Positions 8,567-63,161 of a stretch of 64,000 nucleotides of DNA are shown one piece after another. Source of the stretch: a virus; UHGV virus genome UHGV-0018639; one strand, given 5' to 3'. Both the position numbers and the translations under genes were made by a program. Positions within the stretch are counted from its first letter, which is position 1. Each line of letters starts with the position of its first letter. Under the pieces are notes generated by a model that had not been told where the DNA came from, searched no databases, and saw only the letters and a program-made list of their open reading frames with translations.

Positions 8567-8608
8567 ATAACTTACATTTTATATTATATTTTTATAATAC
8601 GCTTTGGC

Positions 8609-16639: not shown

Positions 16640-16716
16640 GCGCCATTAGCTCAGTTGGTAGTAGCACTTGATTTTTAATCAAGGAGTCCGCGGTTCAAGT
16701 CCGCGATGGCGCACCA
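16640..16716 (+). tRNA. tRNA-Lys (anticodon TTT)
   Basis: GCGCCAT..GCTCAGTTGGTAG..CTTGA-TTTTTAA-TCAAG..CGCGGTTCAAGTCCGCG..ATGGCGC-A-CCA. Confidence 0.9.
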
Positions 16717-16736
16717 TAATTTTTGGAGGAAGTAAA

Positions 16737-21453: not shown

Positions 21454-21680
21454 AAATAACTTGCCCCTTCTTAGGGCGACCTAAGAATGAAAATCGCGTG
21501 AATTGCTGGAAACCTAAGCCGCGAGGTATGGTAATCAGCAGCCAAGCCGTTTAACAACGGAAGGTTCAACGACTATCCCGACAGGGAGTAGGGAGCAATC
21601 CCGAAGTGCGCGACAACTTTCAAAGTTGATGATATAGTCTAATCCCCTTTTGAAATATCGGGAAACCGAGGGTATAAATG
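21454..21680 (+). ncRNA. group I self-splicing intron (no homing-endonuclease ORF, about 227 nt; boundaries approximate)
   Basis: Core elements P GAATTGCTGGAAACC (21500), Q AATCAGCAGCC (21533), R GTTCAACGACTAT (21564) and S GATGATATAGTCT (21628). P4 shows compensatory pairing TGCTG/CAGCA and P7 pairs GACTAT/ATAGTC. A P1 is possible between the exon end CGGGT and GCCC, and the omega-G is G21680. Confidence 0.7.
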
Positions 21681-33194: not shown

Positions 33195-33525
33195 TAGTCT
33201 CCGCGTAAAGCGATTTGCGTGTAAAAATACATATCGAATTGCTGGGAAACTGTAAAGCTATTCTTGCTACAACGTAAGGATGAAATAAGCCTAAGCGTGA
33301 AAGCCGCGAAAGCAGAAAGAAAAGAATAGATGGCGTATGGTCAAATCCTAAGCGCCGTATAATTGGCAATCAGCAGCTAAGCCTTGAATAGAGGAAAGTT
33401 CAACGACTAAGTGCCTTGCAAGCGATTGGCAAGGACAGTGGTATGTGGCTCATTGAGCTAAAGATATAGTCTGTGCTTCGAGAGAAATCCGAAGGAGCGA
33501 AAGCTCAGTGCGGGGTAGCGACCCG
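33195..33525 (+). ncRNA. group I self-splicing intron (no ORF, about 331 nt; boundaries approximate)
   Basis: Core elements P GAATTGCTGGGAAAC (33236), Q AATCAGCAGC (33368), R GTTCAACGACTAA (33398) and S AAGATATAGTCT (33461), nearly identical to the phoH intron. P1 pairs exon ATCGT with GCGAT (33210), and omega-G is G33525. Confidence 0.65.
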
Positions 33526-37347: not shown

Positions 37348-38195
37348 AATTATTTAAATAAGACAGTAGATGAACTAAAATGAAATTCTACTGTCGGATG
37401 CTTCGCTCCATCCATTACGAACAGAGCGAACCCCGCAAGTCTGAGGGTGAGAGACTGAGTTTTTTGGTAATCTTAAACCAACGTCGGGATAAGTGGCGTT
37501 ACATCTTATCAAAAAATCCGTCTGACTGCAGTAAGGGCGGTTGGTTTGTAGGTTTGCCAACAGGTATAAGTCTGGATATCAATAAATACCTACCAAAGAG
37601 GAGTCGGGTTGGAGTCCTCCGGTGCGGTTGATGACCTAGGCCGCACACATATGTTAGGTTAGTTCAGTAGGAAGAATTACTCCCGTCAAGGAGAGAGTTG
37701 AGTTCGAATCTCAAACCTATCCTTGGTTTGATAAGCCAAGAATTTTATCAGGTGCGGCCCTTTGTCGTCGGTCGAGACTCCGTCCGGAAATGAGCTACGT
37801 CTAAGTAAGAAGCGTAAACTTAGCGCTGATGTGCGTGATGCATTGGTTGCGTGTCCAAAACACGATAGGTTTAGTTGGGTTTTCTACACAAAATTCAACT
37901 GAGTCAGACCGCTCACATGAAGGTCGAGGGTTCCACTCCCCTGACGAAAAGCCAATCGGAAAATCTCTTGGTTTTCTCAATTTTGTCAGTAGTTAGTCGC
38001 ACTGATGAAATTGCTTTTTAGAGTAAGGTGTGTAAGTAGCTAAAGAGATGACGCCTCTTTTCTACTTAAAAACCAAGTTATCCGCCTCTGCTTGGCCGCC
38101 CTAACATTTTAAATGAGGGTGAAATGCGTGGAAGGTAGTCAAAAATGGGGACTGCCGCATAGTTGGTTTTGGAGCGTTGCCAGCTACGGAAAGAT
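37348..38195 (+). ncRNA. ORF-free region C (candidate structured RNA / pseudo-tRNA) between two tRNAs
   Basis: About 850 nt with no ORF of 60 aa or more. It contains at least one degenerate tRNA-like element (about 37646-37725, with T arm TTGAGTTCGAATCTCAA) and many GC-rich hairpins. Confidence 0.3.
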
Positions 38196-38711: not shown

Positions 38712-39029
38712 ATGAATCTTTGGGTTGATGATATTAGAACTCCGCCTTTTGATAGCTATATATGGGCACGTTCTGTGAATGAAGCTATTACCGCCATCAA
38801 ATCCTATGAGAGGAACTTTGCTGGTGGCGGCACTATTTTTATTAGCCTCGATCATGATGCAGGCGATTTTGCAGAGGATGGAGGAAATTATATTCGCGTT
38901 TTGGACTGGCTTGAGCAGACAGGAATTGTAGATACTGGATACTTTTTCCATCTTCATACTCAAAACCCCGTAGGAAGAGAAAATATGGAGAGAATTATTA
39001 GAAAAAATGGATGGAGGTTAGTAAAATAA
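38712..39029 (+). CDS. hypothetical protein (105 aa)
   Basis: ORF track entry. Confidence 0.5.
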   Translation: MNLWVDDIRTPPFDSYIWARSVNEAITAIKSYERNFAGGGTIFISLDHDAGDFAEDGGNYIRVLDWLEQTGIVDTGYFFHLHTQNPVGRENMERIIRKNGWRLVK

Positions 39030-51068: not shown

Positions 51069-51443
51069 ATGACTATTAGAGAGCTTTATGTTGCAGTTAT
51101 CAATGGCGAGATGAATGATGAGATGGTTGAGAAGGCTACTGCGCTTCTGGCCACGATGGACAAGGCGAAGGAAACCGCGAAGAACAAGCCCAGTAAGGCC
51201 GCTCTGACCAATGAGAAGTATCTGGCTTACCTCAAGGCCAATGTGCTTACCAGTGAGGGTAAGATTGGTTCTGAGCTGGCTGATGCGCTGACCAATGCGT
51301 TTGCTGAGGACTTCAGCGAGAAGTCCTGCTCTGCTACCAAGGTTGCAAGTATTCTGAAGGCTAGCATCGCTGATGGTTCTGTTGTCAAGGGCAAGACCAA
51401 GATTGACAAGAGCGAGCGCACTACCTATGCGCTTGCTGAGTAA
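51069..51443 (+). CDS. hypothetical Lys/Ala-rich protein (about 124 aa)
   Basis: Start at MTIRELYV; GC-richer than its neighbours; followed by hairpins. Confidence 0.5.
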   Translation: MTIRELYVAVINGEMNDEMVEKATALLATMDKAKETAKNKPSKAALTNEKYLAYLKANVLTSEGKIGSELADALTNAFAEDFSEKSCSATKVASILKASIADGSVVKGKTKIDKSERTTYALAE

Positions 51444-51668: not shown

Positions 51669-52064
51669 ATGAATTTGACTGATAAAACTGATGCTGGAGT
51701 GAATGGAATAATAGAAAAAGAAAGTGATGAAATAGAAATATCTACATATAAAAGTCGCCGCGTAGACCGATTACCAGAAATAAATATGAAGAGATTTTTA
51801 CTAGACAAAGGGCCATCTTTTGAAACAAATAATGATTGGTATTATGCGATGCGAGAATTGAGCTATAATGCTTTCAAGCTTTGGATGTGGATGGCTAGCG
51901 GAGATTCTCAAAAATATATCACTGTGAGATATTTAAAACGACTTTTTAGTTTATCTGATAGTGGCTATAATATAGCTATCACAGAATTGAAAGAAAAAAA
52001 TTATTTACAAGAAGTTGGAGATGGGAAATTTTTCTTTGCGCGGGCAAAAGATTGGAGGACGTAA
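51669..52064 (+). CDS. Rep-like winged-helix protein (N-terminal domain paralog of the downstream initiator)
   Basis: ...AFKLWMWMASGDSQKYITVRYLKRLFSLSDSGYNIAITELKEKNYL is colinear with LYLYLASNADGFNLELSPAAILEKLDIKKSTYYNAINTLEELGYI in the next Rep-like gene. Confidence 0.55.
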   Translation: MNLTDKTDAGVNGIIEKESDEIEISTYKSRRVDRLPEINMKRFLLDKGPSFETNNDWYYAMRELSYNAFKLWMWMASGDSQKYITVRYLKRLFSLSDSGYNIAITELKEKNYLQEVGDGKFFFARAKDWRT

Positions 52065-52125: not shown

Positions 52126-52404
52126 ATGAGCCAAAAAATATTCGAGTGCTACAGTTTACGATTGGCTATGTATCTTATTGATCAAGGGTTTATAGTAATA
52201 AGACTGCGCCCTGACATTAAGAAAAGTGGCAATATGGTTTACTTTTTCAATGAAACTTCTGCTCTTAGAAAAGCGGTAGGGGATTTTAAGAGCACTCATT
52301 CAAAATTGTCTACAAAGGAGTCTACATATGAGTGTGCCAAATCAGAAAATAATACGTATATCAAAGAAGAAATACAAGGAGAACTTTCTCCAAATAGGGA
52401 TTGA
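52126..52404 (+). CDS. small hypothetical protein (92 aa)
   Basis: Strong RBS GAAAGGAGAAA; 77-nt overlap with the next gene in the +1 frame. Confidence 0.45.
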   Translation: MSQKIFECYSLRLAMYLIDQGFIVIRLRPDIKKSGNMVYFFNETSALRKAVGDFKSTHSKLSTKESTYECAKSENNTYIKEEIQGELSPNRD

Positions 52405-53179
52405 TGAATGGATGGAAGCCGCGCGAGTATTGAATCCGGGCGGTTTGAAATTATATCTCTATTTAGCGTCTAATGCTGACGGGTTTAATTTGGAATTGAG
52501 TCCTGCGGCAATTCTTGAAAAGTTAGATATAAAGAAATCAACATATTATAATGCGATAAATACCCTTGAGGAGTTAGGGTATATCAACTTAGTTCAAGGG
52601 AATATTTATCAGTTTACTACAACCCCTGTTTCCAAAAATTTGGAAAAAGAGGTTGATTCCAAGAATTTGGAAAAGACAGCCAATTCCAAAAAATTGGAAA
52701 ATGGAGATAAGAAGCCACCAATTTTTTCCAAAAATTTGGAAGCTGCGGAGGTAAGTAAGCCAAAAATTGATAAAAAGAATGAAAATACTAATTTTGACAT
52801 TTCCAAAAACTTGGAAAGTGATTCCAATTCTTTGGAAAGTGATTCCAAAAAATTAGACCAAACTTTCCAAAAAATTACTATAGAAATAGATAAAATAGAT
52901 AATATAGATAAAATAAATAATGTTCGGCCTTTTGATGAAAAAAGAAAAGAAGAGTTGAGAGAAGATATTTCAGATGGTGGCTATATAAAGTCAAAGAAGG
53001 AATGGGTTATAGACAGGTTTCATCATTTTAGGCAGGAGCCACATGATATGCAAATTCATCGGTTATCTTTTTATGGCTATTCCATAGAAGAGGCTGAGTT
53101 TATTGTTAAAGAAATTTTGAGCGAAGAAAAGATGAAAAGAGTAGAAAGAAGTTTAGGGATAATGCCGCTTGAACCCTAA
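52328..53179 (+). CDS. putative replication initiator (wHTH N-terminal domain, SKNLE repeats)
   Basis: The N-terminal winged-helix block is typical of plasmid/phage Rep proteins. Its central region has 5 or more copies of the peptide (S)KNLE(K/S), encoded by the same TTCCAAAAATTTGGAA palindromes that recur in the downstream iteron field. Confidence 0.55.
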   Translation: MSVPNQKIIRISKKKYKENFLQIGIDEWMEAARVLNPGGLKLYLYLASNADGFNLELSPAAILEKLDIKKSTYYNAINTLEELGYINLVQGNIYQFTTTPVSKNLEKEVDSKNLEKTANSKKLENGDKKPPIFSKNLEAAEVSKPKIDKKNENTNFDISKNLESDSNSLESDSKKLDQTFQKITIEIDKIDNIDKINNVRPFDEKRKEELREDISDGGYIKSKKEWVIDRFHHFRQEPHDMQIHRLSFYGYSIEEAEFIVKEILSEEKMKRVERSLGIMPLEP

Positions 53180-53254
53180 AAACCAGAAAATCTCCTAAGA
53201 ACCAACCCTTTTCGGTTTTTCGGTTCGCGCGTCTTTAGGTAGGGTAAGTAAGTT

Positions 53255-53625
53255 AGTTGAATTTTCCAAAAATTTGGAAAGACTATAAGTCTAGCTTGCT
53301 CTATGACCTCGCGCGAAGGCAACGCCGCATCCGTAAGTAGGACAGTTGTGTAAGTCAAGTCAAATGTCAAGAAAGTAAAACAAAATGTCAAGCCTTTCAA
53401 CAGACTTGACATTTGACTTGACACATTTGACATTTGACTTGACATTTATCTTACTTACAATCTTACCTACACGTGCGCCTTCACCAATTTTGGTAGGAAC
53501 GCCGCCCTGTAAGTAAGACAGGAATTTTGGGACGTTAGAATTTTCCAAAAATTTGGTAAGTGCGGCGTGCTAGAAAAATTCTAGAAATTTTGGGGCGAGA
53601 GAATTTTCCAAAAATTCCACCGTTG
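53255..53625. repeat. TTTTCCAAAAATTTGGAAAG palindromes (3 or more copies), also embedded within the rep-like gene 52328-53179
   Basis: Copies at about 53263, 53533 and 53603; related TTCCAAAATTTGGAAG copies at about 54625, 54768 and 54990; at least 5 copies inside the Rep ORF, where they encode the SKNLE repeats. Confidence 0.55.
53368..53452. repeat. TTGACATTTGAC direct-repeat cluster (5 or more copies)
   Basis: CAAATGTCAAG...AAATGTCAAG...GACTTGACATTTGACTTGACACATTTGACATTTGACTTGACATTT. Confidence 0.6.
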
Positions 53626-53754
53626 ATGGAGTAAGAAAAATTGTGAAAAATTTGTGAATTTTTCAGTTGGACAGAAAATTTTAGGACTGTGAATTTTAGG
53701 AGAGTAAGTAAATCTCCTACACTTTATATTGTAAGTAAGGCATATAAGTAAGGT

Positions 53755-54075
53755 AGATAAGTTAACTTATAAGTAGGACTTATAAGTAAGACTTATAAGT
53801 TAACTGTGTGTTTTACTTATAAGTTAACTGATAATTCAATCTATAAGTTAACTGACAGTCCAACCTATAAGTTAACTGATAACTCAACCGACTCCAAACC
53901 GCCTCGCGGGAGAGAGCACAAGTTCCACCTATAAGTCAACTGAACCCCAAACTATGCGTCCTACCTATAAGTTAACGGGAGGTTTGCGTGTGGGGGAAAG
54001 CGACCGACTCAGCGGGCGTATGCTGTTGTACCGTAGCTCTCAACTGCGTAGCCAACCTATAAGTCAACGAACACA
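53755..54075. repeat. iteron array: 11 or more copies of (A/C)CTATAAGT(T/C)AAC(T/G) at about 24-bp spacing
   Basis: ACTTATAAGTAGGACTTATAAGTAAGACTTATAAGTTAACTG...CTTATAAGTTAACTGA x4...CCTATAAGTCAACTG...CCTATAAGTTAACGG...CCTATAAGTCAACGA, with further copies at 54255-54285. Confidence 0.7.
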
Positions 54076-54784
54076 CAAGCGAACGCCCACTCCACATCGC
54101 TCGGTCATGTAATGGTCGAGGCCTTGTGCGGGGTATGGGGGGAGGCGTTTTTATGTAATTTTTTGGATATAATGTCAAATTTTATGCAAAATCAAGTTTC
54201 TTTTTTATAGAAAATATACAAAAAAATGAATAAATATGCATTTTCTCATGAGGCCGCGACTATACGTTTAACCTATAAGTAATACTTATAAGTAGGGCCT
54301 ACCTAACCTCTCCTCCAATTTTGGGGGGGAATTTTTTATGCCAAATGTGACAATGTCAAGTTTTACTTACACAACCAGCGCGGCCGTCGTTTTAACTAAC
54401 TTATTTTCTAACTTACTGGTAATCCCACAATTATAAACACCACTGGTTTTATTCTCCCAAACATTTGTAAGTTCTTTCTTGAAAAGACTTGCGCGCACAC
54501 AATTTTTTCGTGGCTCAGAATGAATAAATTACGGTTGGATGGTGCGACTTGCCCTACTTACAGGTGCGCCCGCCCAGAATTTCCCAGTTTTTCCAAAATT
54601 TTCCAACTTTTTTAGATTTTGTCAATTTTCCAAAATTTGGAAGTCGCGCACGGTTGAACGGCATACCTGACGGTCAGAAAAGTTGTTTTTTTTTACAATG
54701 TAGAGTTTTGTGACTTACTATACAATAAAAACAGAAATCGCGCTGGAAGAAATTTCCAGCTTATGTAAAAATTTGGAAGCGCCG

Positions 54785-54945
54785 CTGTGTAGGTTCCAGC
54801 TTATATAGGTTGGAAAAATTTTCCAGCTGCTGGTTTATTCTTCTAATTTTCCAGCTGGGCATTGTCGTAGTTGCTGCGTTTCAGTTTTTCTCCAGCTGCT
54901 ACGCTTTCCAGCTTTTCCAGCTGCTATATGTTTCAGCTGCTGGGA
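54785..54945. repeat. TTCCAGCTGCT direct repeats (6 or more copies)
   Basis: TTCCAGCTTAT, TTCCAGCTGCTGG, TTCCAGCTGGG, TCCAGCTGCTACGCTTTCCAGCTTTTCCAGCTGCTATATGTTTCAGCTGCTGG. Confidence 0.6.
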
Positions 54946-55107
54946 CCGATGGTGAGTGGAGGCGACCGCACGTGTGGGTTGGTAAAATTTGGAATTACTT
55001 CCAAAATTTGGAAGGCGGGCAAATGGAAGAAATTTACATTCTTCCGACTGGAAGGAAACTGACAATAAAACCCAATTTTTGGAAACTGAAAAATTTGAAA
55101 ATAATAA

Positions 55108-55127
55108 TTTAGACTAAAGTAGTCTAA
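55108..55127. promoter_or_regulatory. isolated copy of the palindrome (TTTAGACTAAAGTAGTCTAA) at the distal end of the early cluster
   Basis: Same half-sites. It lies just beyond the terminator of the last minus-strand gene, with no promoter attached. Confidence 0.45.
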
Positions 55128-55166
55128 TTTTTTATAAAATACAGAAAAGGGAGATTATCCCTTTTC
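55128..55166 (-). terminator. intrinsic terminator of the early cluster (its stem contains the exonuclease stop codon)
   Basis: Minus strand reads GAAAAGGGATAATCTCCCTTTTC followed by TGTATTTTAT. Confidence 0.6.
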
Positions 55167-56039
55167 TGACATTTTCTGCAAAAAAGCTTCAACTGTGCCA
55201 AGTTCACGGAATGGAAAATACAGTATGCCAAACTGATAATTGCCTTTTGTTCGCTTGTGAATTTCCGCAAAGATTTTACTTTCTATTTCTGCGTCAGAAA
55301 GTGCGGTATGCTCTTCATCAAAATCAAAATCTTTTGCAAGGAATCGAAACGACGTTTCCGCGCTTGTCTTGAAATATTTCCCGCTTGCCGTTATCCATTC
55401 ATTATCTACACAAGCCTGCTTATATTCATCATTGTTGAGCAAATGCCGCGCCGACAGTCCCCACAAATCAAACAGGGGATAAGCAACGCCGTGAAAACGA
55501 AATACATCACCTTCAAATTCGCGGCGGCTTTCGTGCGTTCTGCCGCTTGCAATGTTTTCACAAATGCGTTCCTGCAAGGCAAGCCACGAATGAAACTGCG
55601 GGGAATAAAGATTGTTTATATAAAGCTCTGTAAATGGAATTGCTTTCTTGAAGTCAAACATTGAGTTATACGCACCTACGGCGGAAACTTCGGACAAATC
55701 ACGCTCAAGAACGGTAATAGCGTGCTTCCAGTCGGTCAGCTTGATTTCGCCGCGCTCAAGGCGTTCAAGGTAAATCGGGCGTTTGCTTGCATAATATGCA
55801 GTGTCAAAGATTTCCGGAACGCTGAAAATTTCGCTTATCAGGAAAGAGCGGCGGCGATATACACGGCCTTTCGCGTCAATTATCTGCCAGCCTAAATCAT
55901 ATATCAGCGGCTTAGCAATAGCAACTTTCTGCTTCGCGGCGGCGTCTAACTTTGCGGCGTAGGGCAGTGTAGCAGTCTCACAGTCAAGAACCATGTAATA
56001 CTTGCGGCGGCGGTCGAGTCTCTTTTCCATTTTTATCAA
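55155..56039 (-). CDS. DEDDh 3'-5' exonuclease (DnaQ/RNase T-like)
   Basis: Exo I MVLDCETAT, Exo II YNSMFDFKKA, Exo III HTALSDAEIESKIF. 294 aa. Confidence 0.75.
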   Translation of the reverse strand: MIKMEKRLDRRRKYYMVLDCETATLPYAAKLDAAAKQKVAIAKPLIYDLGWQIIDAKGRVYRRRSFLISEIFSVPEIFDTAYYASKRPIYLERLERGEIKLTDWKHAITVLERDLSEVSAVGAYNSMFDFKKAIPFTELYINNLYSPQFHSWLALQERICENIASGRTHESRREFEGDVFRFHGVAYPLFDLWGLSARHLLNNDEYKQACVDNEWITASGKYFKTSAETSFRFLAKDFDFDEEHTALSDAEIESKIFAEIHKRTKGNYQFGILYFPFRELGTVEAFLQKMSEKG

Positions 56040-56099
56040 TTCCTTTTTTTGTTAATGTCAAGGGTCTGCCTTCGCTCCCTTGCAAGTATTATTATAGCA

Positions 56100-56167
56100 C
56101 CGCCGCGCAAGAAAGTCAATTGTTAGTTTTTTCACAAGGCTTGTTTTTTAGACTAACTTAGTCTAAA
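56100..56167 (-). promoter_or_regulatory. early-class operator and promoter: palindrome TTTAGACTAACTTAGTCTAAA plus TTGAC(A/T)-N17 -10
   Basis: Palindrome 56147-67. Confidence 0.6.
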
Positions 56168-56193
56168 AAAGCCTATAAAAAATGGGAACTTTT

Positions 56194-56529
56194 TCAAGTT
56201 CCCTTCTTTTCTGCCGCTTTTGCTTCGCGGCGTGCCTTGTCGCGTGCAATCTTCTTTTCCTTTTCGGCGGCTTTCGCGGCGGCCTTTTCTTTCTTGTCAT
56301 TCAGCTTGATTGCGTAATCCTCGCGGCGGCTATAACAGTCATCGCCTTCAAGCTCCTTTGGAACTTTTATAACTACCTGAATACAGCCTTCTTCGCCGTC
56401 ATCAGCAGCAACGGGGAAAGAAAAAGTATTCGCGGCTTCCAGCCCCACATCTTCGCCGTTTTCCTTCGCACAATTCATAAAGAATTCAACGAACTTCGCG
56501 CGCATAGCATTAGCATTTTTAACTGTCAT
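56194..56529 (-). CDS. hypothetical protein with Lys/Ala-rich basic tail (111 aa)
   Basis: GC-richer than flanking DNA; own operator-promoter. Confidence 0.5.
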   Translation of the reverse strand: MTVKNANAMRAKFVEFFMNCAKENGEDVGLEAANTFSFPVAADDGEEGCIQVVIKVPKELEGDDCYSRREDYAIKLNDKKEKAAAKAAEKEKKIARDKARREAKAAEKKGT

Positions 56530-56557
56530 TTTTCATATCTCCTTTTCATTTGGTAAT

Positions 56558-56627
56558 TGTATTTTATCATATAAACTGCGAATTGTCAATATCTTTTTTC
56601 TAGAAATTTAGACTAACTTAGTCTAAA
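56558..56627 (-). promoter_or_regulatory. early-class operator and promoter
   Basis: Palindrome 56607-27; minus strand reads TTGACA-N17-TAAAAT. Confidence 0.65.
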
Positions 56628-56654
56628 ATTTTGGCGGCGGGATTGCTCCCGCAT

Positions 56655-56891
56655 TTAAATCTCTTCGATTGAATTGTAATTTTCTTCCCAAAAGACTTCC
56701 ATATCTTCCTGCTTCAGTTCATTAAGAAGGCAGTCGATATTGTCTCTTGCCTGCCGAAAATCATCCTCATATGTACCACGCTCTTCGCTGCTGGTATAAA
56801 GGTCGTCAAGCAGTGCGGCGGCGTCTTTAAGAATTTTCTCGTCATAGTCATCCAGAACATAACGCTTCTTAGTGCAAGTCTTAATTATCAT
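56655..56891 (-). CDS. acidic hypothetical protein (78 aa)
   Basis: ORF track entry; own operator-promoter. Confidence 0.5.
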   Translation of the reverse strand: MIIKTCTKKRYVLDDYDEKILKDAAALLDDLYTSSEERGTYEDDFRQARDNIDCLLNELKQEDMEVFWEENYNSIEEI

Positions 56892-56924
56892 TTTTAAAAT
56901 CTCCTTTTCTTATTTTGTAAATAA

Positions 56925-56992
56925 AGTATAACATAATTTTTTTGAAAAGTCAAGTTTTTTTGTGCTGTGGTTTTAGACTAACTTAGTCTAAA
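56925..56992 (-). promoter_or_regulatory. early-class operator and promoter
   Basis: Palindrome 56972-92. Confidence 0.6.
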
Positions 56993-57021
56993 TGACGTGA
57001 GAGACATTGGTCTCTCAAGTT

Positions 57022-57198
57022 TCAATCTTTTTTGGTTCCAAACATCTGTTCCCAGCGCCAGTCATTGAATGAAATGTTCTGATGTTCACACCTATCACAG
57101 ATTGCCCCATTGTCGCAAGGGCGATTGCCATTTTCATCGGCATAGCAGTGACAAACTTCACTTAAATAACGACTGTATAAATAAACCATTTTATCCAT
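57022..57198 (-). CDS. small Cys-rich protein (about 58 aa)
   Basis: ORF I found by eye, MDKMVYLYSRYLSEVCHCYADENGNRPCDNGAICDRCEHQ...; own operator-promoter. Confidence 0.4.
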   Translation of the reverse strand: MDKMVYLYSRYLSEVCHCYADENGNRPCDNGAICDRCEHQNISFNDWRWEQMFGTKKD

Positions 57199-57224
57199 TG
57201 TTTTTTCTCCTTTTTTTATTGTGT

Positions 57225-57284
57225 TTGTATTATAACACCATAGTGTGCATTTGTCAACTCTGTTTTAGACTACAATAGTCTAAA
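57225..57284 (-). promoter_or_regulatory. early-class operator and promoter
   Basis: Palindrome TTTAGACTACAATAGTCTAAA 57264-84; TTGACA-N17-TATAAT. Confidence 0.65.
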
Positions 57285-57301
57285 AACCCAAAACGGGAAA
57301 A

Positions 57302-57769
57302 TCAATTTGACTTTCCCAGAATCTTCAAAATTCCATACATTTCTTTTTCATTGAATGCATTGATGCCCCATTCTTCACGGTTACGCGCTTCATCGTCAAA
57401 GAGAATTGCTTCATCATCATAGAATGAGCAGACCGTTGATTTCGGCGTTCCATAAGGAACAACACGAATTTCATCAAACTGGACACTTTTCAAATGAGTT
57501 GCAAGCCATTCTTTTTTTGCTTGCTCAATTAGAGCAAGATACGCTGCACTTGCTGTTTTACTTCCCCAAGAGACAATACAAATTTTATATCCCATTTTCT
57601 TCAGCTTATTCAACTGCCGCGCGAGTGTGCGCATATTGCCGAGCGGGTCAGCATATAAATATGGAGTGGGAATACTTTTCTGCAGACACTCAAGCCATTG
57701 CGGATATGAATAAAAATCAACTATTGTTCCGTCCATATCAAAGACGATTGCGGGCTTGTGGTTATACAT
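57302..57769 (-). CDS. HAD-superfamily hydrolase / phosphatase
   Basis: Motif I FDMDGTIVD. 155 aa. Confidence 0.7.
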   Translation of the reverse strand: MYNHKPAIVFDMDGTIVDFYSYPQWLECLQKSIPTPYLYADPLGNMRTLARQLNKLKKMGYKICIVSWGSKTASAAYLALIEQAKKEWLATHLKSVQFDEIRVVPYGTPKSTVCSFYDDEAILFDDEARNREEWGINAFNEKEMYGILKILGKSN

Positions 57770-57789
57770 AAATCATAATTTCCTTTCTT

Positions 57790-57868
57790 ATTTTGTAAAA
57801 TAAGTATAACATAAATGCGCGGCATTGTCAAGTTTTTTTGTGAGTGGTTTTAGACTAACTTAGTCTAA
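57790..57868 (-). promoter_or_regulatory. early-class operator and promoter
   Basis: Palindrome 57848-68; TTGACA-N17-TATACT. Confidence 0.6.
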
Positions 57869-57896
57869 AAAAGAAAAAACTGGTAAAAATTACCAG

Positions 57897-58094
57897 TCAA
57901 AGATATGTAAATTCTTTTGTTGGCTCATAAGGCACGATTGTGTATGATGAATTTTTGAAGCCCAACTGCCGTGAAAGCCGTTTATTTTCTTCCACTATGC
58001 GCTTGCACTCTTTTTCATCAGTAGAAGCTCCGATTATAACTCCATTATCATAATAGTAATCGGTTGCGCGGTGATATACAAAATAGATTGTCAT
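57897..58094 (-). CDS. hypothetical protein (65 aa)
   Basis: ORF track entry. Confidence 0.45.
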   Translation of the reverse strand: MTIYFVYHRATDYYYDNGVIIGASTDEKECKRIVEENKRLSRQLGFKNSSYTIVPYEPTKEFTYL

Positions 58095-58107
58095 TCTTTC
58101 GCTCTCC

Positions 58108-58338
58108 TTACATTATAATTCTAAAATCAATTTTTGGAATTTTTACTACTTCGTTTTGCTCAAAGGAAAACGGTTCACCTGAACTCAAGTCAATGGCATT
58201 GAAATCATCTCCATCATCTAAACTCATAAACTTTTGAGTTTTTAAGTAAATGGCCATATCTTCACCTATGATTACTTCACTAACAGGAACATCACAAAAA
58301 TTTTTTTCTTCCCATTGAAAATCTTTAGTTATTTTCAT
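58108..58338 (-). CDS. hypothetical protein, family A copy 1 (76 aa)
   Basis: Paralog of 60050-60283, sharing DD(L)FNAI(A/D)LS(D/S)GE...I(P/V)...(E/D)...I.M. Confidence 0.5.
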   Translation of the reverse strand: MKITKDFQWEEKNFCDVPVSEVIIGEDMAIYLKTQKFMSLDDGDDFNAIDLSSGEPFSFEQNEVVKIPKIDFRIIM

Positions 58339-58359
58339 TATATTTAATTCCTTTCTTTT

Positions 58360-58425
58360 AGTGTCTATATTATATCATAATGTGCCAATTTTGTCAACTA
58401 TTGTTTTAGACTATGGTAGTCTAAA
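58360..58425 (-). promoter_or_regulatory. early-class operator and promoter
   Basis: Palindrome TTTAGACTATGGTAGTCTAAA 58405-25; TTGACA-N17-TATAAT. Confidence 0.65.
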
Positions 58426-58453
58426 ACGCCCTAAAAGAGCGAGAAAATCTCGC

Positions 58454-58675
58454 TCAATTTTCAAGAATAAATCTATATTTTACTTTACAACATGGCGTGT
58501 CGTCACCTACCCAGAATAACTCTCCATTATCGAGATAAACCGCGTTGCCTTCATCGGTCGTATCTGTTTTTATAAAGATATTGGCAGGGTCAATTTCTTT
58601 ATAAAGAACTTCACCGCGCGAAAAACCACAAAAGGGAGAACTTTCCTTACCATTGCGCAAATCTTCAATATACAT
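58454..58675 (-). CDS. hypothetical protein, family B copy 1 (73 aa)
   Basis: Paralog of 59813-60034 (MYIEDLRNGKESSPF...DEGNAVYLDNGELF...KYRFILEN). Confidence 0.5.
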   Translation of the reverse strand: MYIEDLRNGKESSPFCGFSRGEVLYKEIDPANIFIKTDTTDEGNAVYLDNGELFWVGDDTPCCKVKYRFILEN

Positions 58676-58711
58676 TTTTGTTTCCTCCTTAAATTCTTTT
58701 CAATAAATGCC

Positions 58712-58849
58712 AAGAGCCAATGCGAAAAACTACACGGTAAATAGCGCGGCCTATACGGACTTCTTCGCCCCTCTGGAATTTGTTATTTGACGCTTTGCCG
58801 AAATCCCATCCGCAATAGCCGAAAATTTCATTCATTACGCTTGCCTCCC
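58712..58849 (-). CDS. small hypothetical protein (about 45 aa)
   Basis: ORF I found by eye, MNEIFGYCGWDFGKASNNKFQRGEEVRIGRAIYRVVF... Confidence 0.3.
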
Positions 58850-58854
58850 TTTCT

Positions 58855-58928
58855 TGACTACATCATATCATATTTTTTAGGAAATGTCAATAAAAATTTT
58901 AGAAACTTTTAGACTAACTTAGTCTAAA
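58855..58928 (-). promoter_or_regulatory. early-class operator and promoter
   Basis: Palindrome 58908-28, plus an extra half-site TTTGTCTAAA at 58930. Confidence 0.6.
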
Positions 58929-58972
58929 ATTTGTCTAAAAAAGAAATGGGATTTTCTCCCATTTCTCTCGGT

Positions 58973-59344
58973 TTACTTCTCTATGAAGTAAACCTTGCGC
59001 TTGCCCACCTTCGGGAACTTACGCTCTTCCACGCTGATAAGGCCATCCTTCACAAGTCCGCGGGCAATCGCGCCTGCCTTGTTATGTGTGATTTCAAGAG
59101 CTTCGCCCAGCTCCGTCTCGGTCAGGCCGTCACAGCCGTCCGCGTTCAGCGTCTCCATGATTGCGGCGCGGATAGGCGCGTTCTCCTTCTCTGACTTCTC
59201 TGCGGCCTTGCTCTTGCGCTGGTCGTTGCGGCGGTCAAGATTGGACAGAGCTTCCACACAATAGGCGTTCAGCTCGTCGGTCAGGTCATACTTCTCCATC
59301 ATGGTGGTGAAAAACTCGCGTGCGGTCATCTTCTTGTCGTTCAT
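58973..59344 (-). CDS. putative winged-helix DNA-binding protein (GC-rich, about 57% GC)
   Basis: ...GLTETELGEALEITHNKAGAIARGLVKDGLISVEE...KVGKRKVYF has a wHTH-like C-terminal half. Its strikingly higher GC than the AT-rich neighbours suggests horizontal acquisition. Confidence 0.5.
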   Translation of the reverse strand: MNDKKMTAREFFTTMMEKYDLTDELNAYCVEALSNLDRRNDQRKSKAAEKSEKENAPIRAAIMETLNADGCDGLTETELGEALEITHNKAGAIARGLVKDGLISVEERKFPKVGKRKVYFIEK

Positions 59345-59409
59345 AGCATTTCCTTTCTAAATGGCGCTAAGGTCGCCGCCCTTATTAGTGCGGGGCTTTA
59401 TCTCCCCTT

Positions 59410-59485
59410 CACGATTATTATTATAGCACAATATCGCGGAAAGTCAACAATTATTTTTTGGATTTTTAGACTATCTTAGTCTAAA
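59410..59485 (-). promoter_or_regulatory. early-class operator and promoter (upstream of the GC-rich wHTH gene)
   Basis: Palindrome TTTAGACTATCTTAGTCTAAA 59465-85. Confidence 0.6.
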
Positions 59486-59503
59486 AGCAAAAAAGAAGAT
59501 TTA

Positions 59504-59689
59504 TTAATCTTCTTCATCCCATTCTTTTATAAGGGCGAGCGAACCATCTTCTAAAATTTTCCAAATTTCATAGTATTTGGTTTCATCAAGAGGCGCAGTT
59601 CTCCAATCATCAACTATACGCTCAGGAATAATTGCGGCGTCACATTCCCATTGGTCACTTAAAGGGCGTGCTTCGCATATAAGATACAT
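59504..59689 (-). CDS. acidic hypothetical protein (61 aa)
   Basis: ORF track entry. Confidence 0.45.
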   Translation of the reverse strand: MYLICEARPLSDQWECDAAIIPERIVDDWRTAPLDETKYYEIWKILEDGSLALIKEWDEED

Positions 59690-59714
59690 TTTTAAAATCT
59701 CCTTTTCTTTTTTT

Positions 59715-59780
59715 AGTAATTGTATTATATCTCAAAGTTTCTAAAAAGTCAAGTCGTGTTTTAGACCAACTTAGTCTAAA
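59715..59780 (-). promoter_or_regulatory. early-class operator and promoter
   Basis: Palindrome TTTAGACCAACTTAGTCTAAA 59760-80. Confidence 0.6.
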
Positions 59781-59812
59781 AAAGTTTTTCTGAAAAAGAG
59801 CGGGAGAACCGC

Positions 59813-60034
59813 TCAATTTTCAATGGTGAATGTATATTTTACGGGAAAACAAAGTTCTTGCGGACTTACTTTAAAAACCTCCCCATTGTCAACGTAAACG
59901 GCGTTACCTTCGTCAGTTTCGTCTATTTTCATAAAAAATTCATTGGGGTCGCATTTTTTGACAAGTAAGGCTCCTTTTTCAAAAGAGTCAAAAGGAAATA
60001 CCGTCTTTGAATTGCGTAAATCCTGTACATACAT
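59813..60034 (-). CDS. hypothetical protein, family B copy 2 (73 aa)
   Basis: MYVQDLRNSKTVFPF...DEGNAVYVDNGEVF...KYTFTIEN. Confidence 0.5.
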   Translation of the reverse strand: MYVQDLRNSKTVFPFDSFEKGALLVKKCDPNEFFMKIDETDEGNAVYVDNGEVFKVSPQELCFPVKYTFTIEN

Positions 60035-60049
60035 TTTTTCAAATCTCCT

Positions 60050-60283
60050 TTACATTTCAATTTCAAGGTTATATTCTGTGGGAATCCAAACAATTTCATC
60101 TATGTCAAAAAGTCGGAGTTCTCCATCAGAAAGTGCGATTGCATTGAAGAGGTCATCTTCATCTTCTCGGCGTATTGTTGTAGTAGAAATATAAGGCTTG
60201 CCGCAGTCATCGAGAAAAAGCTGACCATAATCAACAAAACCATAACTCGTTCCGAAATTGCCTGTCTTAACTTTGTAATTCAT
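60050..60283 (-). CDS. hypothetical protein, family A copy 2 (77 aa)
   Basis: Paralog of 58108-58338. Confidence 0.5.
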   Translation of the reverse strand: MNYKVKTGNFGTSYGFVDYGQLFLDDCGKPYISTTTIRREDEDDLFNAIALSDGELRLFDIDEIVWIPTEYNLEIEM

Positions 60284-60299
60284 TTTTAATTCCCCCTTT

Positions 60300-60376
60300 A
60301 GTGTCTATATTGTATCATATACCGCACGAATTGTCAATAAAAATTTCAGAAACTTTTTAGACTAACGTAGTCTAAA
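60300..60376 (-). promoter_or_regulatory. early-class operator and promoter
   Basis: Palindrome TTTAGACTAACGTAGTCTAAA 60356-76; TTGACA upstream. Confidence 0.6.
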
Positions 60377-60398
60377 ATTTTAGAAAAAGGAAGATTTT

Positions 60399-60707
60399 TC
60401 AACCTTCCTCTTCGTCATGCTGGAATATGAGAGTAAAAGACATATACTCATCGAGATACCGCGCGGTCTGTGGATTAATGTCAAAGTCGTCACATACATC
60501 CGCGGCGCTTTCTTCCTTGCTATAATAACGACAAGTCTGGAGCGGGCTAGTCAAATCAATGACTGGAACATTAACATTAGCCGTGGTTGCTGGCCGTCCT
60601 ATGACAAGAAGTCGGGTGCGGCCTTCATGGTTTTCGCCATAAATTGCGTAAAGATTGCCAATTTCAACCAGTCCGCTTATCACTGTACCAATATCAAATT
60701 CAACCAT
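60399..60707 (-). CDS. hypothetical protein (about 102 aa)
   Basis: Start at MVEFDIGTV after AAAGGAG. The ORF-track start at 60770 would overlap the promoter. Confidence 0.5.
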   Translation of the reverse strand: MVEFDIGTVISGLVEIGNLYAIYGENHEGRTRLLVIGRPATTANVNVPVIDLTSPLQTCRYYSKEESAADVCDDFDINPQTARYLDEYMSFTLIFQHDEEEG

Positions 60708-60734
60708 TTTTTTAAATCTCCTTTTTTTATTTTG

Positions 60735-60808
60735 TAAATATATAATACCATACCCCGCATGATTTGTCAATGTATTTTTTCACAAAATTTAGACCAACTT
60801 AGTCTAAA
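60735..60808 (-). promoter_or_regulatory. early-class operator and promoter
   Basis: Palindrome 60788-808. Confidence 0.6.
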
Positions 60809-60833
60809 AATTCCAAAAACCAAAAAGTGGAAA

Positions 60834-61223
60834 TTACTTTCCACTCATTGGACACACGGCTAAGCCGCGCTCAGTTAAATATTTGATTGCTTTTTCGCCG
60901 TCGTGGTAGTTTAAAATGTCTTGAATTGATGGATGTGCTTTATCATACTTAAAGCAAAAAGAAATATCAATATCTTTTTGTTTCTTCTCATTTGCTATCG
61001 GGAGACAATCTTCCCATTTAGCAAAACGGCGAAAGCCTTTTCTATTTTTTTCAACGCTGACACCGCTAGTATATCCTTTGTTAAAATACTCTTCTAATAA
61101 ATCCCAACTGCCGTGAACTTCTTTATCTTTGGGAATTTCATCATCAAGGTGGAAGCCCTTCGACGTGATATCTATAAGTTTATTGTTATAATATGTATAA
61201 ACCCATCCATAAAATGCCTTCAT
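60834..61223 (-). CDS. hypothetical protein (about 129 aa)
   Basis: Start at MKAFYGWVY after GGAAGG, abutting the upstream membrane-protein gene. Confidence 0.45.
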   Translation of the reverse strand: MKAFYGWVYTYYNNKLIDITSKGFHLDDEIPKDKEVHGSWDLLEEYFNKGYTSGVSVEKNRKGFRRFAKWEDCLPIANEKKQKDIDISFCFKYDKAHPSIQDILNYHDGEKAIKYLTERGLAVCPMSGK

Positions 61224-61441
61224 TTCGCCACTTCCTTCCCCACGCCAAGAACAATTTTTGTAATCCACAGAATAAGCCACATTAGAAACGCGGTTTTTGC
61301 GCTGAACGCAAAAGCAATAACGCCCAACTTAGTGAGCGCCCACCACAATACCCAAATCAGGCCGAGAGTAAATCCCGCGCTTATCGCGCTAAGCAGGGCA
61401 ACAATGATAATTCCAAGAATGACTGCGAAAGTTTTATTCAT
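61220..61441 (-). CDS. small membrane protein (73 aa, 2 TM)
   Basis: VILGIIIVALLSAISAGFTLGLIWVLWWAL... Confidence 0.5.
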   Translation of the reverse strand: MNKTFAVILGIIIVALLSAISAGFTLGLIWVLWWALTKLGVIAFAFSAKTAFLMWLILWITKIVLGVGKEVAK

Positions 61442-61464
61442 TTTTTATCAATTCCTTTCCGGTT

Positions 61465-61541
61465 TTGTAAGACAAGTATAACATATAAATTTTGGTTTGT
61501 CAACCAATTTTCTAAGAATTTTTAGACTAAGATAGTCTAAA
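61465..61541 (-). promoter_or_regulatory. early-class operator and promoter
   Basis: Palindrome TTTAGACTAAGATAGTCTAAA 61521-41. Confidence 0.6.
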
Positions 61542-61569
61542 TTTGGTAGAAATTCCAAAAAAGCGGGGC

Positions 61570-61806
61570 TTAAAAGCCCCGCCCGAACATTTTTTCTAGT
61601 TTTCTTTCATATTCAAGCTGTGCGAGCCGTTCCTCTTCTTCCTCTTGCTCAGCTTCCTCTTCCTCTTCGAGCCGCAGGTCGTTATACCAAGCGTAATCAT
61701 CACATTCTTCAGCGGGATTGCCGTCTATACAGCAATAACCATTCTTATAATAGGGGCAATCAATATCGCCTTCAGCAGGGCAAGTATAAGATGAAAATTC
61801 CTTCAT
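61570..61806 (-). CDS. Cys-rich protein with poly-Glu tail (about 78 aa)
   Basis: MKEFSSYTCPAEGDIDCPYYKNGYCCIDG...EEEEEAEQEEEEE; start after AAGGAG. Confidence 0.5.
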   Translation of the reverse strand: MKEFSSYTCPAEGDIDCPYYKNGYCCIDGNPAEECDDYAWYNDLRLEEEEEAEQEEEEERLAQLEYERKLEKMFGRGF

Positions 61807-61829
61807 TGTGGTATCTCCTTCACTCAATT

Positions 61830-61904
61830 TCTGTACCAAGTATAACACATAACCGCGCACTTGTCAATAAGAAATTTTGGCAATTTTAGACTAAGATAGT
61901 CTAA
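61830..61904 (-). promoter_or_regulatory. early-class operator and promoter
   Basis: Palindrome 61884-904. Confidence 0.6.
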
Positions 61905-61922
61905 ATTTTGAGCGGGAACTTT

Positions 61923-62234
61923 TCAGTTCCCTTTGTTCCAATCTTCAGAAATGCGATCAAAGACTTCTTCAGATGTAAGCCAACCCTCAACAGAATCGCC
62001 ATTGCGAGTCAGACCCATTATTTCGAGAAGCCCTTCTTCATGTCCATAACTGCCGCTATGACAAATTGCATCACAAATCAAATTCTTTCCGTGGCCGTAA
62101 TATCGCACAGAAGGCATCCCTATAACATAGTCTATTCGATAGGGAATTTTTGCCTCTTGCAGAAGCCACTCAAGTTTGCCCATTTCAATATATTTTATTT
62201 CAATTCCGCATGAGTCCTTCTTTATCAGTTCCAT
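61923..62234 (-). CDS. hypothetical protein (103 aa)
   Basis: ORF track entry. Confidence 0.5.
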   Translation of the reverse strand: MELIKKDSCGIEIKYIEMGKLEWLLQEAKIPYRIDYVIGMPSVRYYGHGKNLICDAICHSGSYGHEEGLLEIMGLTRNGDSVEGWLTSEEVFDRISEDWNKGN

Positions 62235-62254
62235 TTTTCAAAAACTCCTTTTCT

Positions 62255-62332
62255 TATTGTATTTATATAATATCACAAAATTTTCGTAAGTCAACCCACA
62301 AAAAATTCCAATTTAGACTATGATAGTCTAAA
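62255..62332 (-). promoter_or_regulatory. early-class operator and promoter
   Basis: Palindrome TTTAGACTATGATAGTCTAAA 62312-32. Confidence 0.6.
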
Positions 62333-62362
62333 ATTCTGAAAAAGTTTGAGCTTTATCAGCTC

Positions 62363-62542
62363 AAACAAATTCTGCAAAAGAGCGCTCCACAGCTCTTGCA
62401 TCTTCGCGGCGACACTCAACCCTTATCAGGTTATCGCCTAGATGCTCTACAAAGCAGGGAATATTAGCCTCTAGCAGATTCATCGCTCGAATAAATTCGG
62501 GCGCGTTCGCATCTTCAACATAAATTTCCTTTATATACATTT
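62363..62542 (-). CDS. small hypothetical protein (about 59 aa)
   Basis: ORF I found by eye, MYIKEIYVEDANAPEFIRAMNLLEANIPCFVEHL... Confidence 0.35.
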
Positions 62543-62559
62543 GGTAATCAATTCCTTTC

Positions 62560-62643
62560 TCTCAATTTCTGTATTTATTATATCACAAATTTTCTATAAT
62601 GTCAAATCCATTTTCTTTCCAATTTAGACTATAATAGTCTAAA
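62560..62643 (-). promoter_or_regulatory. early-class operator and promoter
   Basis: Palindrome TTTAGACTATAATAGTCTAAA 62623-43. Confidence 0.6.
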
Positions 62644-62684
62644 ACAAAAATTTTCGTAAAAAAAGGAGCGGGAAATAATCCCGC

Positions 62685-62966
62685 TCAATTCCAGCCGCGC
62701 ATTTTCCAGCACAGAGCATCGCCCGGCTGCCCGTAGCAGATGTTCGGGTGCAGAATAACCTCACCTTCGAGGATTCCGAGCTTTTCGCAGAACTCCTCGA
62801 TCAGCACGTCGGTAGCTTCAATGCGCGCCTGCTCCAGCGTGTCGGCTGACGGAGCTTCCAGCTCTCCCCAGCTAATAAGGACACTATTCACAATCGGCGG
62901 CAGGCGGTGAGCGTTCGCGGCAACGTAGGCGCAGAGTTCACGGTAATTTATGGCGGTAGTAGTCAT
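62685..62966 (-). CDS. hypothetical protein (about 93 aa, GC-rich; weak HicB-antitoxin-like N-terminus)
   Basis: Start at MTTTAINYREL after AAGGGGGA. About 55% GC. Confidence 0.45.
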   Translation of the reverse strand: MTTTAINYRELCAYVAANAHRLPPIVNSVLISWGELEAPSADTLEQARIEATDVLIEEFCEKLGILEGEVILHPNICYGQPGDALCWKMRGWN

Positions 62967-62989
62967 TGGAAAATCCCCCTTTTCAAGTA

Positions 62990-63062
62990 TGACTAATTTT
63001 ACCACGGATTCACGGAAATGTCAATGGCCAAGGATTTCCATTTTAGACTATGATAGTCTAAA
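62990..63062 (-). promoter_or_regulatory. early-class operator and promoter
   Basis: Palindrome 63042-62. Confidence 0.6.
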
Positions 63063-63161
63063 TTTTTTTGTTTGTGAAATAACTAACGAATTTCGGTAAA
63101 ATTTTCACAAAGCGTAATCGTTTGTGAAATAACAAACAAACTTTTTCAAAAAAAGGAACGG

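Follow-up and report, generated by a model that had tools for sequence, protein, structure and literature searches.

Two separately inherited parts, a candidate in-gene replication origin and a conserved repeat field, at the initiator locus of a large gut phage

We analyzed a 64-kb stretch of DNA (64,000 nucleotides, hereafter the window) from the gut phage genome UHGV-0018639, which is ~130 kb in length; of this genome our analysis covers these 64 kb, and about 66 kb lie outside. The locus of interest is a gene for a protein resembling a replication initiator (rep, 52328-53179, + strand), together with a repeat-packed field without open reading frames (ORFs) that extends from the rep stop codon to the stop codon of the next, convergent gene (53180-55154). 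The original prediction had taken the field for a plasmid-like iteron origin or partition locus served by two Rep-like winged-helix proteins, and had raised the possibility that the element replicates as a phage-plasmid. Our analysis points instead to a locus made of two separately inherited parts, an origin inside rep and a downstream accessory module, and we assign this overall reading a probability of about one half. Of its two parts, we consider it likely that the origin matching the Rep-like initiator lies inside the rep gene. The second part is more tentative: we infer that the field may be a replication-linked accessory array of putative sites for conserved proteins other than the two winged-helix proteins.

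The comparison was based on relatives obtained by a large protein search. They occur on metagenomic contigs of 126-133 kb, several of them from human-gut samples, and the related contigs were readable within 10 kb on either side of the locus. In five relatives, the genes within these 10 kb were read. The field alignment contains twelve fields, and the conservation figure for the GAATTTTCCAAAAATT units was calculated across 11 relatives with several initiator types.

The product of rep, 283 aa in length, is predicted to consist of a winged helix, a disordered linker and a C-terminal helical domain. It matched the PHROG 270 family of replication initiation proteins at 7.8e-10, and showed weak matches to the PHROG O-like families (7.6e-5 to 9e-4) and to DnaD-like families. 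In the predicted model (255-aa form, start at 52412), the pLDDT was ~90 for residues 1-75, below 50 for residues 76-170, and ~93 for residues 171-250. Foldseek returned generic winged-helix matches for this model, its top 50 including neither a RepA_N nor a DnaD structure, and a profile search of the initiator against solved structures found nothing. The start at 52328 is backed by an N-terminus conserved across the family (MSVPNQK...FLQIGIDEW), and homologues of the protein are located inside replication modules. Judged from these profile matches and the predicted fold, the protein looks like a replication initiator, in agreement with the earlier assignment as Rep-like.

A unit of iterons and an AT-rich part, as had been predicted for an origin, is indeed present, and it lies inside the rep gene rather than in the ORF-free field. 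Six 16-bp palindromic iterons, TTCCAAAAATTTGGAA, are located at 52630-52837 with start-to-start spacings of 27, 27, 42, 75 and 21 bp. With up to two mismatches allowed, this palindrome has nine sites in the window versus 0.28 expected, six of them in rep (the earlier count had been five) and three in the field, and two 15-bp variants start at 54628 and 54999. The iterons are followed by an AT-rich tract at 52861-52920, which contains four copies of the 9-bp repeat AAATAGATA (52884-52920) and is a candidate DNA-unwinding element. Its duplex stability is -58.9 kcal/mol per 60 bp, compared with a mean of -78.4 (sd 6.1), and ranks as the second least stable in the 64 kb; the other extreme low-stability windows are nearly all intergenic. 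In the search for an AT-rich unwinding element proposed earlier, this in-gene tract is the candidate. Together the palindromes and the tract encode the 95-residue low-pLDDT linker between the winged-helix and C-terminal domains, and in this linker the repeated DNA appears at the protein level as SKNLE and IDKID repeats.

Among relatives, a change in the DNA-binding domain is accompanied by a change in the iterons. Initiators with TTCCAAAAATTTGGAA iterons, as in the window, constitute type A. Type B (relatives L003, L007 and L008) has a different recognition-helix region and, at the corresponding position of the gene, GTTCGAAAATCCGAAC repeats; the loci searched have type-B iterons in the gene only and none in the field. 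In the SPbeta-like L009 group, the in-gene repeats are GTTCGCAAATGCGAAC in 22-bp phase, and there is no field. Types A, B and L009 all retain the AT repeat tract. In addition, the non-homologous initiator of L013 carries ~8 CTTGACAT repeats followed by four AT-only 12-mers, and that tract is the least stable site of its locus. By duplex stability, the AT tract ranks lowest or close to lowest in the window, L001, L005, L009 and L013, and is less extreme in L003, L007, L008, L012 and L014. On the reverse strand of L012, downstream of its own type of initiator, we observed a surviving 13-aa fragment of an L014-type initiator, derived from the AAAAGTATAAAAAGTATAATGAAG repeat region of the latter. 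This fragment is the footprint of a cassette replacement.

Both an in-gene origin and the exchange of replication-module cassettes are known designs. In phage lambda, the origin lies inside the O gene, where palindromic iterons and then an AT-rich tract encode the linker that joins the DNA-binding domain, at the N-terminus, to the C-terminal domain. The rep gene shares with O the in-gene iterons and the AT-rich tract in an inter-domain linker, and, as in lambda, the N-terminal domain and the iterons are exchanged together among relatives. Unlike in lambda, the six iterons are irregularly spaced, the PHROG O-like matches are weak, Pfam gives no match to Phage_rep_O, and a conserved repeat field of 1.9 kb follows. 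G38P of the Bacillus phage SPP1 binds repeats within its own gene 38 (oriL), and there is a second site, oriR. Extra copies of the repeat are likewise found here, with type-A palindromes at 53264, 53543, 54628 and 54999; unlike the SPP1 copies, they persist in phages with other initiators and are not tied to the initiator. The origin of RepA_N systems is reportedly within the central part of the gene, a finding ascribed to Weaver in 2009. RepA_N initiators (pAD1, pSK41 and PLE RepA) have an N-terminal winged-helix DNA-binding domain and a variable C-terminal domain, and they use semi-palindromic iterons whose inverted repeats converge on a poly-A tract (PMC7145576, citing Weaver et al. 2009). 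TTCCAAAAATTTGGAA, GTTCGAAAATCCGAAC and GTTCGCAAATGCGAAC are similarly semi-palindromic iterons converging on a poly-A tract, although the initiator lacks a PF06970 match and a RepA_N structure among its top 50 Foldseek matches. By analogy, the initiator would work like lambda O, SPP1 gene 38/oriL and the RepA_N systems, and we do not call it a member of the Phage_rep_O or RepA_N families.

The field, as had been claimed, is free of genes. Only mechanical ORFs were found at 53180-55154, the longest of which is a TTG-started frame of 100 aa (54810-55112), and gene callers left the same gap of ~2 kb without a gene in five related contigs. The core of the field spans 53255-54345, and its right third (54340-55100) occurs in two variants. 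Where at least four repeat families had been described, we counted at least six field-specific ones, far above chance. The TATAAGT-box array occupies 53730-54068, where ACTTATAAGT palindromes with 13-bp spacing grade into YTATAAGTYAAC iterons (seven direct and one inverted). CTATAAGTTAAC, allowing at most one mismatch, has eight sites versus 0.25 expected, all at 53761-54068; exact ACTTATAAGT has seven sites versus 0.06 expected, five of them in the field. The earlier figure of 11 or more iterons with ~24-bp phasing holds in number only if all 18 TATAAGT boxes are counted, the strict iterons being eight, and holds in spacing for the four that keep a strict 24-bp phase. An inverted pair of TATAAGT boxes at 54268-54293 faces the main array and is identical in nearly all relatives.

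The remaining families are distributed on both sides of this array. Toward rep, a TTTTCGG repeat is present twice (53209-53228), and its reverse complement resembles the type-B iteron (CCGAAAAACCGAA) when compared by eye. Three GAATTTTCCAAAAATT units (53259, 53538 and 53601) lie within 53259-53616, the first of which extends to a full 16-bp palindrome at 53264-53279. A cluster of TTGACA/GTCAA dyads at 53354-53443 has 18-bp perfect arms and a variable loop; relatives keep the arms and vary the loop, and the cluster resembles the in-gene CTTGACAT of L013. TTGACATTTGAC is present in three exact copies, which form an 18-bp perfect inverted repeat. Three families go beyond those originally described, namely GTAAGTAAG, the right-edge palindrome TTTAGACTAAAGTAGTCTAA (55108-55127) and a nearly invariant 22-bp palindrome at 53644-53665, TGAAAAATTtgtgAATTTTTCA, which can be written as TGAAAAATT-tgtg-AATTTTTCA. 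To the right of the array, conserved GC-rich hairpins end in a T-run and are terminator-like on the + strand (54081-54152; consensus fold of 23 pairs), and a similar GGTCGAGG...GGGGGCGTT..TTTT element is found in the L068 field. An AT-rich segment (54150-54260; -62 to -65 kcal/mol) separates the direct iterons from the inverted box pair, and a second intrinsic-terminator-like hairpin followed by a T-run lies at 54309-54338 on the + strand, which relatives keep with small changes. TTCCAGCTG(CT) repeats at 54744-54941 belong to a TTCCAGCT type present in both variants of the right part, and all five CCAGCTG sites of the 64 kb lie in the field.

The GAATTTTCCAAAAATT units, compared at 53260, 53539 and 53602, fit the CodY-box consensus of Firmicutes, AATTTTCWGAAAATT, in 13 of 15 positions, and the window as a whole contains eight such matches versus 1.2 expected; we take this likeness as a lead to a possible host regulator and not as evidence for one. 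Three short contigs from different assemblies (the end of L006, the start of L048 and the end of L052) break at ~53578-53676, within ~100 bp of each other; the palindromes may have disturbed assembly there, or the breaks may reflect a real feature of the DNA. We also considered whether the field might be a graveyard of decayed initiator genes and rejected this, as tblastn of all initiator types against the fields gave iteron-encoded peptides only.

The field alignment shows a conserved element that, to judge from the sequences compared, is inherited independently of the initiator. Field identity is 75-95% downstream of at least five initiator types (A, B, a 202-aa type in L012, and those of L013 and L014), with the homology break at, or just after, the initiator stop codon. 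In the relatives carrying the field, it always abuts the initiator cassette. Conservation was 0.88 for the iteron cores, 0.49 for the iteron spacers and 0.80 for non-motif positions, and reached 0.95-0.99 for the GAATTTTCCAAAAATT units and the 22-bp palindrome (0.99 for the latter). The number of iterons varies by whole 24-bp units, giving five to eight direct iterons among relatives. By this pattern the field is not neutral: motif cores are kept and spacers are not. The second winged-helix protein is a short paralogue of 131 aa with the N-terminal domain only (51669-52064, + strand; PHROG 270 at 4e-5, weak HTH_36), and the earlier view of the two genes as paralogues was upheld, albeit weakly (27% identity over 73 aa, E = 7e-4). 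The short paralogue has three alleles among relatives and is deleted in L007 down to a 39-aa stub, on which grounds we rejected it as the binder of the conserved motifs. Since the field is the same behind at least five types of initiator, and since the paralogue is variable or deleted, neither winged-helix protein tracks the field motifs. The claim that the field iterons are the sites of the adjacent Rep-like proteins was thus not supported. A conserved 124-aa protein (51069-51443) was also considered as a candidate binder; it has seven close homologues only, and its model (pLDDT 56) was too poor for a fold search. What is unusual about this locus is the conserved, initiator-independent repeat field beside a hypervariable cassette.

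The TATAAGT boxes link the field to a second site in the window. As had been noted, the box appears three times in front of the DNA-ligase operon (8516-8567, - strand), with exact ACTTATAAGT copies at 8516 and 8529 and a variant at 8558. These boxes lie between a promoter-like TATAAT and the ribosome-binding site, they are conserved in four relatives, and the gene that follows was confirmed as an ATP-dependent DNA ligase. Because the boxes recur, conserved, in the leader of the ligase operon, the putative box binder is probably a regulator of replication genes, as far as sequence can tell.

More distant phages provide further evidence on where such fields occur. In L011, ORF-poor, repeat-packed DNA (a 34-bp repeat in three copies, and other arrays) directly follows an initiator-like gene. 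In L068, 1.45 kb of ORF-poor DNA with ACATTTATAA/CTTATAAC repeats does the same. The initiator-like genes of both phages have no obvious repeat linker in translations read by eye. L068 also carries a homologue of the exonuclease gene that borders the field in the window; it is located upstream of the initiator-like gene, and the neighbor of the field-like region is the initiator-like gene rather than the exonuclease. This layout favors a replication-linked role of the field over a role in the early gene block. Close homologues of the initiator function in phages without any field: in L009-type phages, the initiator is within the replication module, the next gene starts 27 bp downstream, and there is no repeat field. 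Overall, a replication-linked role for the field is plausible.

A mechanism compatible with these data would run as follows. Dimers of the initiator would use the N-terminal winged helix to bind the six palindromes at 52630-52837, the 9-bp-repeat AT tract next to them would melt, and the C-terminal domain would recruit the helicase machinery; winged helix, iterons and AT tract would travel between phages as a single cassette. In the field, a putative TATAAGT-box protein may cover the iterons in 24-bp phase and could contact the inverted pair, ~460 bp distant, by looping. Its three further sites would be those in the leader of the ligase/helicase operon, and the array may thereby couple genome copy number to replication-gene expression by titration, like P1 incA or E. 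coli datA. Alternatively, the field may act as a second or ancestral origin or as an enhancer, like SPP1 oriR or P4 crr. The terminators and the palindrome at the right edge would shield it from two convergent blocks of transcription. P1 incA, P4 crr and datA are arrays of sites outside the origin that control or assist replication, and their sites bind the initiator itself. The field resembles them as a cluster of repeated sites near but outside the origin, which could act by titration or looping; it differs in that its sites do not follow the initiator type.

Some field families resemble the in-gene iterons of other initiators, namely those of type A and of a CTTGACA type, and the short TTTTCGG repeat resembles type B. 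An adventurous reading would see the field as a landing pad: an initiator-independent module beside a hypervariable cassette, in a new clade of ~130-kb gut phages, combining arrays that resemble the iterons of several circulating initiators (type A, type-B-like and CTTGACA) with putative arrays for conserved proteins. We think this improbable. If it were true, any incoming cassette could work, or the initiator of a co-infecting relative could replicate the phage, or the initiator of a rival could be titrated, and the cis element would have been shaped by competition between phages rather than by one Rep-iteron pair. More generally, in-gene origins are known from a few model elements, and here this design recurs in uncultured large human-gut phages with at least three specificities of one family plus an unrelated initiator. 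Palindromic repeats and an AT repeat tract that encode a disordered linker may serve as a sequence rule for locating origins in metagenomic phages. The field shows that a large block of putative protein sites can be conserved independently of the initiator, and, if it controls replication timing, genome entry or competition during co-infection, it would offer a tractable example of the poorly understood non-coding regions of phages.

Several findings weigh against the two-part reading. Only ~15 of 75 initiator homologues have obvious peptide repeats, so in-gene iterons are not universal in the family, and at E <= 0.1 in Pfam the 283-aa protein matched neither Phage_rep_O nor RepA_N (PF06970). 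Cumulative GC skew has its maximum at the field, where the arms of gene orientation converge (+ strand from ~10.7 to 53.2 kb, - strand from 55.2 kb onward) and where a terminus would be expected, not an origin. The skew can be explained by transcription; its switch coincides with the change in gene orientation, so that origin and terminus are inseparable on this measure. The AT-rich segment at 54150-54260, including the stretch at 54195-54260, is replaced by unrelated sequence in L013, L014 and L048, which argues against an essential unwinding element there; for the field, the AT-rich prediction did not hold. Initiators of type A and of the CTTGACA type are lacking in most of these phages, and the matching field sites could be leftovers of cassette exchange. 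They could be recent leftovers because these phages are ~90% identical, or the sites may be used. Finally, the binders of the field motifs are putative throughout.

Of the competing explanations, the one that survives best, although we consider it unlikely, is that the field is a transcription boundary and regulatory hub, in which terminators and operator arrays between convergent blocks bind temporal regulators with no direct role in replication. On its right, most of the small - strand genes at 56040-63161 form units of a terminator, a 21-bp palindrome (TTTAGACTAnnnTAGTCTAAA) and a consensus TTGACA-17-TGnTATAAT promoter. The palindrome has ~16 copies in this early block and looks like a putative operator at which an activator or a shut-off protein would act. 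The early-unit palindrome recurs once more, as TTTAGACTAAAGTAGTCTAA, at the right edge of the field (55108-55127), there without a convincing promoter; in most intergenic regions of the early genes at 56-63 kb, it precedes the consensus promoter. On the left, the + strand block has a second promoter class with TATAATATATATAGAAA. Two distinct promoter classes thus flank the field, and two + strand terminator-like elements and a bidirectional hairpin lie within it, as the regulatory explanation would have it; the TATAAGT boxes in the ligase-operon leader also fit. However, 2 kb and ~40 sites far exceed the needs of an insulator, and no strong conserved promoter lies inside. A + strand promoter (TTGACT-16-TACAAT, 53433-53460) that we had considered as a conserved element was rejected, as L003 and L008 have lost it. 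Nor would a regulatory hub explain the tight linkage with the initiator cassette that is seen in three lineages.

We regard as improbable, too, that the field is a plasmid-type origin of the two Rep-like proteins, with external iterons and an AT-rich unwinding element. Such an origin would account for phased direct repeats adjoining an AT-rich stretch and an initiator gene, for the type-A palindrome copies in the field, and for the external repeats beside the initiator-like genes of L011 and L068 that show no obvious repeat linker by eye. It is at odds with the constancy of the field after at least five initiator types, the absence of type-B iterons from it, the variable and, in L007, deleted paralogue, and the replacement of the AT-rich part in L013 and L014. 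Nor was there an excess of DnaA boxes; the check proposed earlier gave one match in the field, which is the chance level.

Phage T5 has a region of this general kind, the injection stop signal (iss) region, which has gone unexplained for decades. By architecture, its Repeat Region 3 is the closest analogue of the field: it is a 1.2-kb untranslated region with nested palindromes, inverted repeats and nine direct repeats, conserved above the neighboring ORFs (bioRxiv 10.1101/866236). The field is likewise untranslated, conserved, of kilobase scale and built of nested repeats, and the early genes next to it have strong promoters. As a cis site for DNA entry or end processing, it could mark where an early region that enters first or is terminally repeated has its inner edge. 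The adjacent - strand block indeed consists of single-gene units with consensus promoters, including a HAD-family nucleotidase-like gene. However, the paired DnaA boxes of T5 are absent from the field, the contigs of 126-133 kb read through it and have their ends elsewhere, and the field goes with the initiator cassette. L068 has a comparable field after its initiator, with the exonuclease gene at another place. A T5-like entry site is improbable in our estimation.

The last three explanations are all very unlikely. A phage-plasmid partition centromere bound by a ParB-, ParR- or TubR-type protein would suit the dispersed 16-bp palindromes and phased short repeats, which resemble parS/parC-type sites, and TubR was among the generic winged-helix fold matches. 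However, ParA, ParM, TubZ, ParB, integrase and repressor families were found neither in the window ORFs tested nor within 10 kb in five relatives. Rep and its region had no match among INPHARED phages or PLSDB plasmids in DNA and protein searches, a genome-collection scan restricted to the iteron pattern found no isolate-genome copy, and the gene content is that of a large phage. The phage-plasmid reading is unsupported, and iteron-like repeats alone are insufficient for such a call. A packaging site (pac or cos) bound by a small terminase subunit would agree with repeat-rich non-coding DNA, typical of such sites, and with the three short contigs that break at ~53.58-53.68 kb, but no terminase gene was recognised among the window ORFs screened, and the field is spanned by long contigs. 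A case for one or more non-coding RNA genes could be made from the terminator-like ends at ~54150 and 54338, a fold z-score of -4.9 and one-sided hairpin changes (54081-54152) that fit G-U pairs; against this, the fold of the opposite strand is just as good (z = -5.5), no Rfam family passed the threshold, there were 0 compensatory pairs, and the motif families are dyad-symmetric DNA sites.

An exact-protein look-up of Rep and a first viral scan gave no match, IMG/VR pattern scans with 16-18-mers returned mostly chance matches (for example, in the coding sequence of unrelated phage contigs), and Phass-1 and MT835855 were too distant for alignment with the field. The sole match of the genome-collection scan was an unrelated element in a Bacteroides metagenome-assembled genome (L043, contig CALULP010000040.1, 4068-4170), which has five 25-bp iterons, GGTATAAGTTAACGAGGTGACAAG, with the core TATAAGTTAAC, adjoining a gene that by eye is a possible replication gene. 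The TATAAGTTAAC core that it has in common with the field array is probably a coincidence.

Upstream of rep, a DUF5659 gene (52126-52404, + strand; Pfam PF18903 at 1.5e-5) precedes every initiator type, including those of L009 and L012-L014. Its end overlaps the rep start by 77 nt in another frame, and gene callers in relatives chose the second Met of rep. Downstream, the last gene of the convergent early block (55155-56039, - strand) is DEDD-exonuclease-like (PHROG 20187 at 1e-30); its product has distant Enterococcus phage matches, one annotated as an exodeoxyribonuclease, and the Exo motifs were read by eye. The HAD-family gene of the early block (57302-57769) resembles a 5'-3' deoxyribonucleotidase and recalls the pre-early dmp function of T5. 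Altogether, the early - strand units resemble the host-takeover regions of large virulent phages. The second + strand promoter class, with the motif (G)TTATAATATATATAGAAAATGAG, was observed at 17.8, 18.3, 37.2, 38.3, 42.5, 45.3, 49.1 and 50.9 kb, and the ligase operon carries a related motif, TATAATATAAAATG.

Globally, the locus lies between the two converging blocks. A replication module occupies 1-10 kb on the - strand (topoisomerase II, UvrD-like helicase, GIY-YIG endonuclease, ATP-dependent ligase, dNMP kinase and RNase H). The divergent region at 10.1-10.8 kb was considered as a competing origin and rejected, repeat arrays not being found there. Tail and lysis genes are located at 25-35 kb, and the window has 16 tRNA genes. 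With its lysis genes, ~16 tRNAs and early takeover-like block, the phage looks virulent from the gene content seen, and its host is possibly a Gram-positive gut bacterium.

Other features were noted in passing. A ROOL RNA (269 bits, 18440-19085) lies inside the tRNA gene cluster (tRNAs at 13.8-20.4 and 37.2-38.3 kb), and one predicted tRNA (37653-37722) received an odd two-base anticodon call. Also among the tRNA genes is an EcoRI-type adenine methyltransferase (PF13651, 2.6e-83; 16668-17858). Two group I introns were found, one just upstream of a PhoH-like ORF (21444-21662) and one between two endolysin-like ORFs (33145-33494), positions that suggest split genes. Finally, the + strand block encodes a protein with a cREC_REC (cyclic-phosphate processing receiver) domain (PF20274, 1.3e-20; 38712-39029), which has a homologue in L007.

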